Part shown: one piece after another, positions 17,331-42,463 of the stretch
Layout of the letters: each line of letters starts with the position of its first letter
How positions within the stretch are numbered: the first letter of the stretch is position 1
Source of the DNA: Bacilli bacterium
Lineage (GTDB): Bacteria; Bacillota_I; Bacilli_A; RF39; UBA660
Direction of reading: 5' to 3'
Length of the DNA: 42,468 nucleotides
NCBI GenBank assembly: GCA_017397745.1
Contig: JAFQIC010000049.1
Coordinates: 1-42,468, forward strand
Translations under genes and position numbers: made by a program
The notes under the pieces: model-generated
The model's database searches: none
Told to the model about the DNA's origin: nothing
Seen by the model: the letters and a program-made list of their open reading frames with translations, nothing else

Positions 17331-18452
17331 ATGAAATTTAAAATAAATAGAAATTTATTACTTGAGAATTTAAATAATGTAAGTAAAGCATTATCAACAA
17401 GAAATATTATCCCTATACTAAATGGTATAAAATTTAATTTAACAAAAGAAGGACTTTTTTTAACAGCCACTGACAACGAAATAGTTATAGAAAGTTTTAT
17501 AGATAAAAAAGATATAAAACTAATAAAAGAAGAAGGAGCTTTAGTAATACATGGTAGGTATATACTTGATATAGTAAGAAAACTTCCTGATGAAGAAATA
17601 GATATTGAAGAAAGTGATGGTAATAAAGTAATAATTTTTACAGATAATAGTAAATATAACTTAAATTGTTTTAACTTAAATGATTTTCCAAATATTACTT
17701 TTAATGATAGTGAAAATAATATAAATATATCAACTTTAGAATTTAAAAATATTATAAATGAAGTTATTTTTGCTTGTTCAACTCAAGAAAGTAGACCTTT
17801 ATTAACTGGTGTAAATATAAAAATAATTGGAAACTTTTTAGAATGTACAGCAACTGATTCTTATAGGCTTGCTAAAAGAATTTATAATTTAAATGATATT
17901 ATAAAAGAAAATATTAATATTGTAATACCATCAAGAAATATAAGTGAATTTGTTAAATTATTAACAAAAGAAGATATAAATGTTAATATCCATTTATTTA
18001 ATAACAAAATAATTTTTAAATATGATAATATGATTTATCAATCAAGTTTATTAAATGGTACTTATCCTAATACAGATAATTCAATTCCTAATGAGTTTGA
18101 AATTGAATATGAAATTTCTTTAAATGACTTATACAATGCAGTAGACAGAGCATCATTACTTACTTCTTCAAAAGAAAAAAATATTATAGAATTTGTAAGT
18201 AATGAAGATGTAATTACTATAATGTCTATGAGTCAAGAGATAGGTAAAGTAGAAGAAAAATTAAAAGGAAATAAGTTAAAAGGAAATAATATTAAAATAT
18301 CCTTTAGTGCAAAATATATGCTTGAAGCTTTAAAGACTTTTGATAGTGAAAAATTAAAATTACTTTTAAATGGTGAAATTAAACCAATAGTTATAAAAAG
18401 TGAAGAAAACCCTGATCTTATTCAATTAATTTTACCAATAAAAACTTTTTAA
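17331..18452 (+). CDS. dnaN: DNA polymerase III beta sliding clamp
   Basis: 373 aa. MKFKINRNLLLENLNNVSKA start, three-domain clamp length, position after dnaA. Confidence 0.96.
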   Translation: MKFKINRNLLLENLNNVSKALSTRNIIPILNGIKFNLTKEGLFLTATDNEIVIESFIDKKDIKLIKEEGALVIHGRYILDIVRKLPDEEIDIEESDGNKVIIFTDNSKYNLNCFNLNDFPNITFNDSENNINISTLEFKNIINEVIFACSTQESRPLLTGVNIKIIGNFLECTATDSYRLAKRIYNLNDIIKENINIVIPSRNISEFVKLLTKEDINVNIHLFNNKIIFKYDNMIYQSSLLNGTYPNTDNSIPNEFEIEYEISLNDLYNAVDRASLLTSSKEKNIIEFVSNEDVITIMSMSQEIGKVEEKLKGNKLKGNNIKISFSAKYMLEALKTFDSEKLKLLLNGEIKPIVIKSEENPDLIQLILPIKTF

Positions 18453-18534
18453 ACTTACGACATAATTCAACAAATTTCGATAAAAGTATATGTTAATATA
18501 ACTTCCAAATTTTTTGAAAGGAGGAAGTTTTTTA

Positions 18535-19005
18535 ATGAATTATGAAATAAATGACGAAACTTTAGCGGTACTTCCTATTAGTGATAATAAATGTAGGGTA
18601 GTAGAAAACTCAAATGAATATTATATTGATACAAATTCTTTTGATGTTATTGAACACAGTTGTGAATATTTTGGTAGTACTTTTTTAGGAAGGCATGTTG
18701 GCTCTATAAAGATGCTTGGATCAAGATATAAAACTCCTATCATTATTGCTGAAACTGATTCTATTATAGTTTTTCCTACACATTCACCTAGAAATAAAGA
18801 ATGTATTTGGATTTGTTTAAATAATATTAATAAAATTTATAAAACAAACAATGATAAAACTGTTATTGAATTTGTCTCAGGAGATATTTTAGAATTAAAT
18901 ATTTCTTATAATGTAGTAAATAATCAAATATTAAAAGCAACTAGATTAAAACATATTATTGATGAAAGAAAAAACACTTTAAATAATACTAATAAAGTGT
19001 TATAA
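18535..19005 (+). CDS. ComK-family transcription factor homologue
   Basis: By-eye alignment to B. subtilis ComK as I recall it. ETLAVLP matches ATIAVLP. IEHSCEYFGSTFLGRHVGS matches VDRSCRFFGSSYAGRKAGT. YKTPIII matches HKPPIMV. IIVFPTHS matches IFLFPTLS. ELNISYNVVNNQILKATRL matches ELPISYNSFENQVYRTAWL. ATG 18535 follows AAAGGAGGA. The track TTG start at 18514 is an artefact. Confidence 0.75.
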   Translation: MNYEINDETLAVLPISDNKCRVVENSNEYYIDTNSFDVIEHSCEYFGSTFLGRHVGSIKMLGSRYKTPIIIAETDSIIVFPTHSPRNKECIWICLNNINKIYKTNNDKTVIEFVSGDILELNISYNVVNNQILKATRLKHIIDERKNTLNNTNKVL

Positions 19006-19072
19006 TTGTAATAGGTATATGTATATTACTATACCTATTATTTTCTTTATAATTTACAAAAGAGGGTTTAAA

Positions 19073-20146
19073 ATGAATGTCACTAAATTAGAATTAATTA
19101 ATTTTAGGAATTATGAAAAATATAAATTAGAGAATTTAAAACAAAAAAATATTATACTTGGAGATAATGGAACAGGTAAAACAAGTATATTAGAATCTAT
19201 TTACTTTGGTAGTATTACTAAAACTTTTAAAAGTAGTTCAGACTCTGTTGTTATAAAAAAAGAAAAAGATTTTTCAGTAGTAAAAATTGAACTTGATATT
19301 AATAATAAATTAAAAAAATTAGAAGTTAGAATTACTGAAAATGGAAAGAAAACTAAAATTAATGGAAAACTAAAAAAAAGACTTAGTGATTATATTTCAA
19401 CATATAAAGTAATTATATTTTCACCTGATGAAATTAAAGTTATAAAAGGAACTCCTCAAAATAGAAGAAATTATATAAATATTCAAATATCTCAGTTAAA
19501 TAAGTACTATATTACAAAACTTAATAATTATAATACTTTAATAAAAAATAAAAATGAATATTTAAAAAAAATGTATTTAAATAAAAATTTAGATGAAATA
19601 TATTTGGATATAATTGATAAAAAAATATCAGAATTAGGATTTGAGATTTGTAGTTATAGAAATGAGTATTTGAATAAAATAAATAATTATATATCAAATA
19701 AAATGAAAAAATTTAAAGAAAATAGTAGTCTTTTTATAAAATATAATTCAGATTTTGATGGTTTAGATGAAGAAAAAATATTTAGACTTTTAAAAAAGGT
19801 AAGAAAAAAAGAAATAATTATGGGTGTATCTAGTGTAGGTATTCATAGAGATGATTTTGAATTTATTTATAACAATCAAAATGCGAAAGAATTTTGTTCA
19901 CAAGGTATACAAAAATTGATAATATTATCTATGAAACTTTCTGAAAATGAATTATTAATAAAAGATTATGGAATATATCCTATATTGCTTCTTGATGATT
20001 TATTTAGTGAATTAGATAAAACAAATCAAAATAAAGTACTTAAAAATTTAAGTAAACAAAATCAAATTTTTATTACAACTACTGATTTAAATAATATAGA
20101 TAAAAAAATAGTAAATAATTCAAATATTTTAACTTTAAAAGATTAG
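19073..20146 (+). CDS. recF: DNA replication and repair protein RecF
   Basis: Starts MNVTKLELINFRNY. Walker A GDNGTGKTS, signature and Walker B regions (ILLLDDLFSELD). ATG 19073 follows AGAGGG. The track start at 19019 adds a hydrophobic artefact. Confidence 0.93.
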   Translation: MNVTKLELINFRNYEKYKLENLKQKNIILGDNGTGKTSILESIYFGSITKTFKSSSDSVVIKKEKDFSVVKIELDINNKLKKLEVRITENGKKTKINGKLKKRLSDYISTYKVIIFSPDEIKVIKGTPQNRRNYINIQISQLNKYYITKLNNYNTLIKNKNEYLKKMYLNKNLDEIYLDIIDKKISELGFEICSYRNEYLNKINNYISNKMKKFKENSSLFIKYNSDFDGLDEEKIFRLLKKVRKKEIIMGVSSVGIHRDDFEFIYNNQNAKEFCSQGIQKLIILSMKLSENELLIKDYGIYPILLLDDLFSELDKTNQNKVLKNLSKQNQIFITTTDLNNIDKKIVNNSNILTLKD

Positions 20147-22072
<1,926 letters not shown>

Positions 22073-22082
22073 GAGGGTTAAA

Positions 22083-24542
22083 ATGGATCACAGTAGAGAT
22101 AGATTGGAAAATAATAATATAGTAAGTGAAGTAGAATCATCTTTTTTAGAGTATTCAATGAGTGTTATAGTTTCTCGTGCCTTACCTGATTTAAGAGATG
22201 GTTTAAAACCGGTTCATAGAAGGATTCTTTATTCAATGTATGAATCAGGTTATACTCCAGACAAACCTCATAAAAAAAGTGCTAGAATAGTCGGAGATGT
22301 AATGGGAAAATATCATCCACATGGCGACTCTAGTATTTATGAAGCAATGGTTCGTATGGCTCAAGATTTTAGTTATAGATATATGCTTGTAGATGGTCAT
22401 GGAAATTTTGGTAATATAGAAGGTTATGGTGCCGCAGCTATGCGTTATACAGAATCTAGGCTATCAAAAATTTCATTAGAATTACTAAGAGATATTAATA
22501 AAAATACCGTAGATTTTTCACCAAACTTTGATGAATCTGAGAAAGAACCGGCAGTACTACCTTCAAGATTTCCTAATATTTTAGTAAATGGTACAATGGG
22601 TATTGCGGTAGGTATGGCTACCAATATTCCTCCACATAACTTAGGTGAAGTAATAGATGGTTGTGTTGCTTATATAGAGAATCCTGAAATTGATACTATG
22701 GGATTAATGCAATATATTAAAGGGCCAGATTTTCCTACAGGTGGAGTTATTTTAGGTAATAGTGGTATAAGAAAAGCATATGAGACTGGAAGAGGTTCTA
22801 TTACAATTAGAAGTAAGGCTATTATTGAAGAAAAAAACGGAAGACATTATATTATAATCGATGAAGTTCCTTATGGAGTAAGTACATTAGAACTTAAAAA
22901 TAAAGTAGCTGAACTTGTTCATAATAAGGTTATTGATGGTATTTCAGATTATCATACAGATTTAAAAAACGGTGTTAAAATCACTATAACTTTAAAAAAA
23001 GATGCTAATCCACAAGTAGTTTTAAATAATTTATATAAACATACTCAATTTCAAACTAATTATAGTATTATGTTTTTAATGTTAGACGATATGGTACCTA
23101 AAACTTTACCTCTTAAAGACATTATAAGTAAATATATTGATTATCAAAAAGAAATAATTATAAGAAGAACTAAATTTGATTTAGATAAAGCTGAAAAAAG
23201 AGTTCATATTTTAAATGGTTTAAAAATAGCGCTTGATAATATAGATGAAGTAATTAAAATTATAAAATCATCAAAAAGTGATGAAATAGCTAAAGCCGAG
23301 CTTTCTTCAAGATTTGGATTAGATAATATTCAGGCTGATGCTATACTAGAAATGAAACTTCGTAGATTAACAGGTTTAGAAAGAGAAAAAATAGAAAATG
23401 AAATTAATGAATTATTAAAATTAATTGATGAATTGCGTTCAATTCTAGCAAGTGAACAAAAAGTTTTAGAAATAATTAAATCAGAAATGCTTGAAATTAA
23501 ACAAAAATATGCTGATGAAAGAAAAACATCTATTGACATGACTGCAATTGATTATATTGATGATGAGTCTCTTATACCAAATGAAGATGTTATTGTAACA
23601 ATTACACAAAATAATTATATTAAAAGATTAACTACTGATACTTACAAGACACAAAATAGAGGTGGTGTGGGTATTAAAGGTATGACTACAAATGATGAAG
23701 ATTTTGTAAAAGATATAATAAATCTTAAATCACATGATTATATATTATTTTTCTCAAATAAAGGTAAAGTTTATAGATTAAAAGGCTATGAAATTCCTGA
23801 GTTTAGCAGAACATCTAAAGGAATTCCGCTAGTAAATTTATTACAAATAGAAAAACAAGAAGTTATTAACACTATAATTACAGTAAGTAGAGATAATACG
23901 TACAAATATTTGGTGTTTGCTACTAAAAAAGGCATAATAAAAAGAACTCCAATAGAAGATTTTGATAATATAAGGCAAAATGGTAAGATAGCTATTACCC
24001 TTAAGGAAGACGACGAATTAATATCAGTACTAAAAACTACGGGTGAAAATCATGTTCTAATGTGTTCTTCAAAAGGTAAAATGGTAAGATTTAAAGAATC
24101 AGAAATTAGAGTTATGGGAAGAACAGCTGGTGGTGTTAGAGGAATTAGATTATTAACAGATAATTGTGTAGGCGCCGATGTGACAGATGATGAAAAGAAA
24201 GTTTTAATAGTAACCGAAAAAGGATACGGTAAAAAGACTGATGTATCTGAATATAGAGAAACTAAAAGAGGAAGTAAAGGTGTGAAAACTCTTAATATTA
24301 CAGATAAAAATGGCGATATCATTGGATTTAAGTCTACAACAGAAGATGTTGATTTAATGCTAATTACAAACAATGGAATAGTAATAAGGTTAGATATTAA
24401 TTCTGTATCAAATATGGGTAGAGTAACTCAAGGTGTTAGATTAATAAATCTTAAAGAAAACAATAAAGTTTCATCCATTTCATTAATTAACAAAGAAAAA
24501 AATAGTGAAAATAATGAAACTGAAGATAAAAAAGAAATTTAA
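22083..24542 (+). CDS. gyrA: DNA gyrase subunit A
   Basis: Contains [17 protein letters not shown], the QRDR region [20 protein letters not shown], the catalytic AAMRYTE Tyr, and a C-terminal beta-pinwheel. Confidence 0.98.
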
Positions 24543-25022: not shown

Positions 25023-25029
25023 TTATTTA

Positions 25030-25101
25030 GCACAACACATGATTGTAGAACCAGGTCAGAATCGGAAGATAGCAGCCTTAATACAACTTATGTGTGTGTG
25101 C
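25030..25101 (+). ncRNA. ffs: Small (4.5S-type) signal recognition particle RNA
   Basis: ACCAGGTCAGAATCGGAAGATAGCAGCC matches SRP domain IV of E. coli 4.5S RNA (ACCAGGUCAGGUCCGGAAGGAAGCAGCC), with a GGAA tetraloop and compensatory stem changes. The flanks GCACAACACAT and ATGTGTGTGTGC pair, and a T-run follows. Ends are approximate. Confidence 0.8.
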
Positions 25102-25120
25102 TTTTATTTAGGAGAAATAT

Positions 25121-36359: not shown

Positions 36360-36556
36360 GTTTAAGCAGTGAAGAAGTGTGTAAATATTGATTCTTTTAA
36401 AGAGAGCTTTGGTTGGTGTAAAAAGTAAAGATAGATATTGAGTATGGCTTTGGAGTTTAACCGTAGAAAAGGCGTTAACTTATAAAGTGTGTGATTATTC
36501 ACGAATTAAGGTGGTACCGCGGGGATTTGCCTCGTCCTTTGATTCGTGTTTTTTTG
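36360..36556 (+). promoter_or_regulatory. T-box riboswitch leader (probable Met specifier)
   Basis: Stem I elements: GA/K-turn region AGTGAAGAAG, AGAGAG bulge (36401-36406), and distal loop GGTTGGTGTAAAA. Specifier-loop candidate GAGT-ATG-G, with ATG at 36444-36446. T-box sequence AATTAAGGTGGTACCGCGG (36504-36522). Terminator arms at 36500-36511 and 36536-36548, followed by T7 (36549-36555). Confidence 0.85.
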
Positions 36557-42178: not shown

Positions 42179-42463
42179 ATGAAAATAACATCAGTAAACA
42201 TACGTAAAATTAATAAAGAAGGATCACGTATGAGAGGTATTGCTTCAGTTCTATTAGATGATGAATTTGCAGTACACGATATTAGAATAATTGAAGGAGA
42301 TAAAGGCTTATTCATAGCTATGCCAAGTAGAAAAACAGCTACTGGAAGTTATAGAGATATAGCTCATCCAATTTCACAAGAAGTTAGAAGTGTTTTTGAA
42401 AGAGAAATCTTAGATGCATATGAAAATGCAGATGATGAAACTACTTCAAGTGATGAAGAATAA
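42179..42463 (+). CDS. spoVG: Septation/sporulation regulator SpoVG
   Basis: MKITSVNIRKI...GIASVLLDDEFAVHDIRIIEGDKGLFIAMPSRKT...YRDIAHPI is a near-canonical SpoVG sequence, followed by an acidic tail. Confidence 0.95.
   Translation: MKITSVNIRKINKEGSRMRGIASVLLDDEFAVHDIRIIEGDKGLFIAMPSRKTATGSYRDIAHPISQEVRSVFEREILDAYENADDETTSSDEE

Follow-up and report, generated by a model that had tools for sequence, protein, structure and literature searches.

A tail-less ComK-family gene between dnaN and recF in uncultured gut Bacilli, with phased Spo0A-type boxes in its promoter region

Why would a homolog of ComK, a protein best known as the master regulator of late competence and the K-state in Bacillus subtilis, be encoded inside the replication gene cluster of an uncultured member of the Bacilli? 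The question is raised by an open reading frame (ORF) of 156 codons located at positions 18535-19005 of the forward strand (ATG at 18535, stop codon at 19003-19005) of a 42,468-nucleotide (nt) contig, hereinafter the window, from a Bacilli bacterium of the RF39 order, family UBA660 (GenBank assembly GCA_017397745.1, contig JAFQIC010000049.1). The initial annotation of this DNA proposed that the ORF encodes a ComK-family regulator inserted between dnaN and recF, and that its location next to the origin would link its dosage to replication initiation. On balance, we favor the view that the gene encodes a functional ComK-type transcription factor without the C-terminal tail of the B. subtilis protein, which occupies its ancestral slot in the dnaN-recF gap as a transcription unit of its own, is gated by phosphorylated Spo0A (Spo0A~P), and has its level set by transcription.

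The membership of the 156-amino acid (aa) protein in the ComK family is a direct observation. Comparison with the Pfam ComK profile (PF06338) produced a match with an E-value of 7.8e-40 and a score of 136.5 bits (cut-off 22.3), in which residues 2-146 of the protein span positions 3-151 of the 152 profile positions; the homology along the whole length of the protein, originally claimed from an alignment by eye, is thus borne out by a hidden Markov model search. This is the sole ComK match across the entire assembly, which consists of 953 kb in 89 contigs with a completeness of 88% and a guanine plus cytosine (GC) content of 25.1%. BLASTP aligned residues 2-145 of the query with residues 11-157 of the 192-aa B. 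subtilis ComK at 31% identity, an alignment that serves only as a lead. None of the NCBIfam models matches the protein, and a search by sequence found no solved ComK structure. The AlphaFold2 model, which was built on 37 homologs, is confident throughout, with a mean predicted local distance difference test score (pLDDT) of 93.3 and a predicted template modeling score (pTM) of 0.87. The best Foldseek matches of this model (encoded by positions 18535-19002) are LytTR DNA-binding domains, namely those of B. cereus 3d6w, pneumococcal ComE (4cbv) and AgrA (4g4k), with template modeling scores of 0.52-0.59 normalized to the target; these matches are sub-threshold (E-values of 0.03-0.6, none at or below 0.001).

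Intact ComK orthologs of 147-158 aa are present in every sampled genus of the family to which the genome belongs, and all homologs in public data are 146-170 aa long, with 25 columns of the alignment invariant among the 37 homologs. Across all 24 genera of the family, the ComK orthologs are 38-59% identical compared with 36-68% for RecF, a comparable range that points to purifying selection on comK. Judging from these comparisons, the 156-aa protein is a genuine, complete, tail-less member of the ComK family and not a truncation product. ComK-domain proteins without the long C-terminal tail of B. subtilis ComK are also found outside this clade, for example B. cereus ComK2 and the staphylococcal ComK.

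B. subtilis ComK is longer by 36 residues, and the alignment stops at its residue 157, leaving its last ~35 residues without a counterpart. The initial estimate of about 35 missing C-terminal residues is therefore correct as a count but not in its implication of a defect, given that the Pfam domain is complete. The part of B. subtilis ComK that has no counterpart here is the C-terminal MecA/ClpCP degron: the C-terminus of the B. subtilis protein (FMLYPKEERT...GERY) is listed as a MecA-dependent ClpCP degron (PMC8138137). Profile search for MecA (PF05389) yielded no match in any of the 41 related genomes, and the B. subtilis and Lactococcus controls were matched. Because both the degron and MecA are missing from the clade, the ComK level would probably be set by transcription rather than by regulated proteolysis.

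The order of genes and its conservation can likewise be stated as observed. A ComK match was detected in all 24 sampled genera of the family and in the single genome of the sister family, and the distribution elsewhere in the class is patchy. In tblastn searches with the DnaA, DnaN, RecF and GyrB sequences of the window itself as queries, the order dnaA-dnaN-comK-recF-gyrB-gyrA was recovered in 20 genera of the family and in the sister family; in a 21st genus, dnaN-comK is present and interrupted by a contig end, so that the layout is counted in 21 of the 24 genera. In these genera and in the sister family, comK lies ~1.3 kb downstream of dnaA. Two distant homologs in public assemblies, human-gut samples among them, show the same gene order, with the gene already tagged PF06338; the relatives that carry names are metagenome-assembled genomes labeled "uncultured Tenericutes", "uncultured Mycoplasma sp." and "Clostridium sp. 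CAG:628". The order as a whole consists of uncultured Bacilli, gut organisms of the RF39/RFN20/ML615J-28 type, with genomes of ~1 Mb and a GC content of ~25%. Literature searches found no publication on comK in connection with RF39 or on comK between dnaN and recF, nor was a characterized Firmicute with this arrangement found, in agreement with the initial impression; the layout recurs in the clade and appears to be unpublished. The possibility raised at the outset that the arrangement could prove widespread and already annotated turned out to be the case, given the 21 genera, the sister family and the PF06338 tags in public assemblies; the ComK homology itself stands.

This layout has exceptions. 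In two genera (G016 and G008), comK is placed after pcrA-ligA and in a third (G018) ahead of gatCAB; in all three (loci L102, L100 and L098, respectively), dnaN is directly followed by mnmG (gidA) instead of recF-gyrBA, which points to a rearrangement of the origin region that broke the gene order immediately downstream of dnaN. The relocated comK genes are intact. In G030, a member of another family, the dnaN-recF gap is empty (232 bp) and comK is located elsewhere. In our reading, comK already occupied the dnaN-recF slot in the common ancestor of the order, and most genera have kept it in place; although a position near the origin is not obligatory, its conservation is strong.

The spacers of 24 dnaN-comK-recF loci were compared side by side. 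In the window, comK is separated from dnaN by 82 nt and from recF by 67 nt, and the spacers in the relatives measure 67-233 nt between dnaN and comK and 52-137 nt between comK and recF. Terminator-like hairpins follow both dnaN and comK in many relatives; in the window, a generic scan identified no terminators. Given the spacers on both sides, the hairpins in many relatives and a separate promoter predicted for recF, comK appears to be a small transcription unit with its own predicted promoter that is not simply read through from dnaN. The gene is preceded by a GGAGG Shine-Dalgarno sequence at 18520-18524, 10 nt ahead of the ATG. The generic promoter scan of the window, with 39 promoter-like sites compared with 31.6 expected, is uninformative in DNA with 25% GC.

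Upstream of comK, the 24 loci contain up to three direct repeats TTCGACA(A/T)AA with a 10-bp period, and in most relatives the last repeat lies 11-13 nt before a TG-extended -10 element (TGnTAnnAT). The TTCGACA triples are perfect in three loci (L038, L048 and L050) and near-perfect in four more (L011, L012, L015 and L020). Read on the opposite strand, this heptamer is TGTCGAA, the Spo0A (0A) box core, which is recognized by Spo0A of B. subtilis and Clostridioides difficile through G2, C4 and G5 (PMC3485338). In the window, three 10-bp-phased Spo0A-type boxes are located on the forward strand at 18456-18482 (TACGACA at 18456-18462, TTCAACA at 18466-18472 and TTCGATA at 18476-18482), with one mismatch each, and the last box is followed after 11 nt by TGtTAATAT (18491-18499, forward strand), a putative extended -10 element in the promoter of comK. 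With a score of 18 of 21 (6/7 per box), this site is the best phased triple among the 1.9 million positions of the genome. When both strands of the 24 loci (3.4-12.5 kb each) were scanned, the triple in the dnaN-comK spacer was unsurpassed by any other phased triple in 15 of them. Both the rarity of the motif and its recurrence are thus observed. The binding of Spo0A to these sites and the direction of regulation are what we infer from them: Spo0A~P would gate comK transcription via the three phased 0A boxes just upstream of the extended -10 element.

This mechanism would be a hard-wired version of the direct link from Spo0A to comK in B. subtilis, where Spo0A~P binds the comK promoter directly and provides a 'temporal gate' (PMC3297582). 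The likeness consists in the presence of several 0A-type boxes directly in the comK promoter region, upstream of the core promoter and overlapping it, which in the present case are recognized by sequence. In B. subtilis, there are five scattered sites with 1-2 mismatches each, which comprise activating and repressing sets (PMC3297582); in contrast, the three boxes in the comK promoter of this clade keep an exact 10-bp phase and have no mismatches in several genera, and no sign of the Rok or ComK-box layers was seen. The Spo0A-box promoter of the clade looks like a cleaner, phased variant of the B. subtilis arrangement. Among the tail-less ComK proteins mentioned above, B. cereus ComK2 and the staphylococcal ComK are not known to be embedded at the origin or to carry phased 0A boxes.

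The putative regulator itself is present throughout the clade: Spo0A (PF08769) was detected in all 24 genera with scores of ~140 bits, and the ortholog from a genome of the same genus is an intact protein of 253 aa with a receiver domain and Spo0A_C, whose helix-turn-helix, compared by eye, we take to be close to that of B. subtilis Spo0A. The sporulation hallmarks SpoIVA and SpoIIGA are present in 4 of the 5 relatives tested, which agrees with the published prediction that the RF39, RFN20 and ML615J-28 lineages include spore-formers, a study in which ComK and competence are unmentioned (PMC10868615). The members of the order are thus probably spore-forming.

Three observations weigh against Spo0A gating in the genome under study. 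First, all three boxes are mismatched here, and two of the affected bases, G4 in box 2 and C6 in box 3, are contacted by Spo0A. Second, the relocated comK copies of three genera have weak boxes, with scores of 11-14 of 21, which lends little support to the idea that the boxes traveled with the gene. Third, spo0A, as well as comEA and comEC, was not found in the 88%-complete assembly. The missing spo0A is probably due to an assembly gap because the window is collinear with a same-genus contig (L057) in which spo0A is located ~5.2 kb past the point that matches the window end. The window itself ends in a spoVG-like gene (42179-42463). In the same-genus genome, spo0A is roughly 30 kb from comK and is accordingly origin-proximal as well. 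Given the degenerate boxes and the several partner genes that fall in assembly gaps, the genome in question is a weaker exemplar of the recurring variant.

The strongest alternative concerns the position of the gene. The loss of yaaA could have left a permissive gap in which comK was kept by synteny inertia, so that its location next to oriC has no regulatory meaning and no role in dosage; we consider this close to an even possibility. It is in line with the history of the three genera in which comK moved to the pcrA-ligA or gatCAB loci upon rearrangement of the origin and remained intact, with the predicted promoter of comK itself and the terminator-like hairpins that would insulate it in many relatives, and with the empty gap in G030. 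Because three genera have comK away from the origin, the proposed dosage link to replication initiation is weakened. The position was nevertheless retained in 21 of the 24 genera and in the sister family despite divergence of ComK to 38-48% identity, and spo0A, too, lies within ~30 kb of oriC in the same-genus genome. Furthermore, there is a precedent in Streptococcus pneumoniae comCDE, an origin-proximal competence regulator that responds to replication stress (PMC8394987). The two systems share a competence-type regulator beside oriC in a position conserved within the lineage; they differ in that comCDE, a two-component system with a peptide, is unrelated to the ComK family and is auto-inducible, and in that three genera of the present clade moved comK.

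The next issue is what a functional ComK would control. The inventory of competence-related genes, an observed part of the picture, is mixed. In the genome under study, we identified a pilus ATPase of the T2SSE family (402 bits to PF00437, below the ComGA equivalog cut-off), a divergently transcribed prepilin gene, PilC, a prepilin peptidase (PilD), RecA and a single SSB; among the relatives, comEA-comEC is present in 24 of 24, and the type IV pilus is kept in every genus. The full set of late competence genes (comG/pilus, comEA, comEC, comFA/FC, dprA, coiA and ssbB) was not found in this genome. The check for late competence genes suggested by the initial annotation thus gave a divided answer, with pilus genes found here and ComEA/ComEC in the relatives, and with DprA, ComFC and CoiA not found and only a single SSB. 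In the families sampled from the class, ComK and DprA hardly ever occur together. The likeliest targets of this ComK would be the retained DNA-uptake genes, that is, the type IV pilus, ComEA and ComEC.

Several findings speak against such direct control. DprA, ComFC and CoiA were not detected in any of the 25 genomes of the order that were searched, whereas other families of the class have DprA. A search for ComK boxes (K-boxes), defined as two AAAA-N5-TTTT units spaced by 8, 18 or 31 bp, yielded 2 exact and 45 one-mismatch matches in the genome compared with 0-4 and 19-31, respectively, in Markov simulations, an excess barely above background in a comparison that has low power at 25% GC. The two exact boxes fall within the coding sequences of tgt and of a nucleosidase-like gene, and none of the 7 matches located between genes is followed by a com gene; furthermore, visual inspection of the pilus and comEA promoters in 20 relatives revealed no K-boxes. 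The promoter of the pilus ATPase gene in 20 relatives looks like a good sigma-A promoter within the palindrome TATTATATAATA, and the comEA promoters (loci L058-L077) have AGGAAAT-type -35 elements that are sigma-H-like, which hints, at the level of sequence, that comEA-comEC depends on an alternative sigma factor and not on ComK.

Two additional features of these promoters deserve mention. The pilus ATPase and prepilin genes are divergent (G000:C73:5126-5222 and loci L078-L097), and the palindrome TATTATATAATA, which is perfect, is longer in some genera and is followed by a conserved leader motif ATAAAT(A/G)CTAG; it could be an operator over the -10 element of the pilus ATPase gene. In a few genera, the comEA promoter contains TACGAATA, which is identical to the core of the streptococcal ComX 'cin-box'. 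The staphylococcal ComK works together with a sigma factor of the SigH type. With no DprA, ComFC or CoiA detected and no conspicuous ComK boxes, a role of this ComK as the master regulator of competence, or in transformation, is unproven; its control of DNA uptake is a default guess from homology, which the cis-elements seen here do not support.

The same observations invite a second alternative, namely that ComK has been repurposed for another Spo0A-linked stationary-phase or pre-sporulation program, such as growth or replication arrest, DNA repair or nutrient DNA uptake, rather than transformation. The missing recombination proteins and the lack of visible K-boxes at the pilus and comEA promoters are what this reading would lead one to expect; so are the sporulation hallmarks, SpoIVA and SpoIIGA, in the relatives and the association of comK with genes of DNA metabolism, dnaN and recF in most cases and pcrA-ligA in two of the relocated ones. 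However, ComEA, ComEC and the type IV pilus, which are kept in every genus, represent the core of the uptake machinery that is under ComK in Bacillus, and the site recognized by the ComK of this clade may differ from AAAA-N5-TTTT, a motif that cannot be scored reliably at 25% GC. We therefore consider repurposing possible, although rather unlikely.

Compared with B. subtilis ComK, then, the protein described here shares the same domain over its full length and belongs to a genome group that also has ComEA, ComEC, the type IV pilus and RecA. It differs in its 36 fewer residues, in the absence of the degron and, in the clade, of MecA, and in its location between dnaN and recF; in addition, no K-boxes were recognized in the clade and no DprA, ComFC or CoiA was found.

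The boxes upstream of comK have counterparts elsewhere in the genomes of the clade. With one mismatch or none allowed, five relatives contain 26 copies of the double box TCGACA-N4-TCGACA compared with 5 copies of the reversed control; three genomes have such a site at comK, three have one immediately ahead of spo0A, two have one upstream of the ortholog of a histidine kinase gene, and one genome (G010) has them in the oriC spacers around dnaA. The runner-up phased triple of the genome under study, with a score of 17 of 21, is located upstream of the gene for this membrane histidine kinase, a protein of 401 aa that contains HisKA and HATPase_c domains; we regard it as a candidate orphan Spo0A kinase under Spo0A feedback. 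The kinase locus (G000:C57:2249-3515) is outside the window; the product is polytopic, and its orthologs in G017 and G005 are associated with perfect triple or double boxes. In a more ambitious scenario, the origin-embedded, degron-less ComK would be the output of a membrane kinase-Spo0A-ComK circuit that integrates Spo0A~P with the origin copy number and drives DNA uptake for nucleotide scavenging or a K-state-like pre-sporulation arrest; the missing DprA, ComFC and CoiA are the reason to invoke these purposes rather than recombination. We consider this extended scenario improbable as a whole.

The distribution of the boxes also bears on a third alternative, under which the phased TTCGACA repeats are -35-like, UP-element-like or DnaA-box-like elements, or sites of another regulator, possibly ComK itself. 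Indeed, the heptamer TTCGACA is similar to TTGACA, the -35 hexamer, and agrees with the tail of the DnaA box (ATCCACA) at 5 of 7 positions; double boxes of a similar kind are found near dnaA in G010. Nonetheless, in several genera the boxes match the 0A core at 7 of 7 positions with A/T flanks, the same phased boxes precede spo0A and the orphan histidine kinase gene, which are typical Spo0A targets, the DnaA boxes of the window have a different sequence (TGTGGATAA), and the repeats are unlike the known ComK box. This alternative appears improbable. The remaining possibility, that the comK ORF is a decaying remnant or a mis-called gene, is effectively ruled out by the conservation data: the ORF is shorter than B. 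subtilis comK and matches no NCBIfam model, but the complete Pfam domain, the intact orthologs in every genus, the 25 invariant residues, the strong Shine-Dalgarno sequence and the high-confidence fold model make this extremely improbable.

If comK is indeed a separate transcription unit with a level set by transcription, the leader RNA perhaps adds some control of its own. An inverted repeat on the forward strand (AACTTCC at 18500-18506 and GGAAGTT at 18523-18529) overlaps the end of the Shine-Dalgarno sequence and may occlude it in RNA that is read through from dnaN. Folding of the RNA of this locus gave a probability that the Shine-Dalgarno sequence is unpaired of 0.63 for the leader transcribed from the comK promoter compared with 0.44 for the read-through RNA; across 21 loci, the respective means are 0.60 and 0.45, a weak trend.

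The predicted promoter of recF-gyrBA, which overlaps the end of comK, is located on the forward strand at 18978-19006 and consists of TTTAAA, a 17-nt spacer and a TG-extended TATAAT at 19001-19006 that overlaps the comK stop codon; in the promoter scan, it has 10 of 12 matches plus the TG extension. An equivalent TGTGnTATAAT is found downstream of comK in nearly all relatives. The promoter is followed on the same strand by a conserved recF leader hairpin at 19010-19045 (AATAGGTATA-loop-TATACCTATT at 19010-19039, then ATTTT), to which no Rfam family matches. In the relatives, the recF leader carries GTATAGGAGTAC, a Shine-Dalgarno-like AGGAG near the predicted 5' end, often in the loop of the hairpin. 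The hairpin may be a 5' stabilizer-like element of the recF-gyrBA mRNA.

The genes that surround comK are all on the forward strand. Upstream, dnaN (17331-18452) encodes the DNA polymerase III beta clamp in an ORF of 373 aa and is 46-73% identical to the comK-adjacent dnaN homologs of the relatives; in public contigs, the corresponding gene is annotated with Pfam DNA_pol3_beta. Downstream, recF (19073-20146), which is collinear with the relatives in tblastn searches, is followed after 12 nt by gyrB (20159-22072) and then by gyrA (22083-24542). The 12-nt gap between recF and gyrB leaves no room for a gene such as remB. A small S4_2 gene of the yaaA/rlbA type was not found in the assembly under study or in any of the 24 genera of the family, so the notion that the counterparts of both yaaA and remB are missing from the cluster is upheld. 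The zero count obtained with PF05258, the profile used for remB, is uninformative, given that the B. subtilis control also failed to match. Small S4_2 (yaaA/rlbA-like) genes of 72-90 aa are present in almost every other family of the class, and the sister family has such a gene as well as comK in the dnaN-recF gap. Two Rfam matches above the gathering score were detected elsewhere in the window: a small bacterial signal recognition particle (SRP) RNA at 25024-25110 (58 bits) and a T-box leader at 36360-36542 (99 bits).

The principal implication of these observations is that ComK and Spo0A, two textbook regulators of cell fate in B. subtilis, both survive in uncultured gut Bacilli with genomes of ~1 Mb, where the three phased 0A boxes, a cis-element of unusual clarity, appear to connect them. 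The retention of the uptake genes in the absence of the cytoplasmic recombination mediators raises the question of the purpose of the "competence" machinery in reduced genomes. The proposed model further predicts a very small Spo0A regulon that would consist of spo0A itself, one membrane kinase and comK, and thus provides a concrete regulatory hypothesis for organisms that have not yet been grown.

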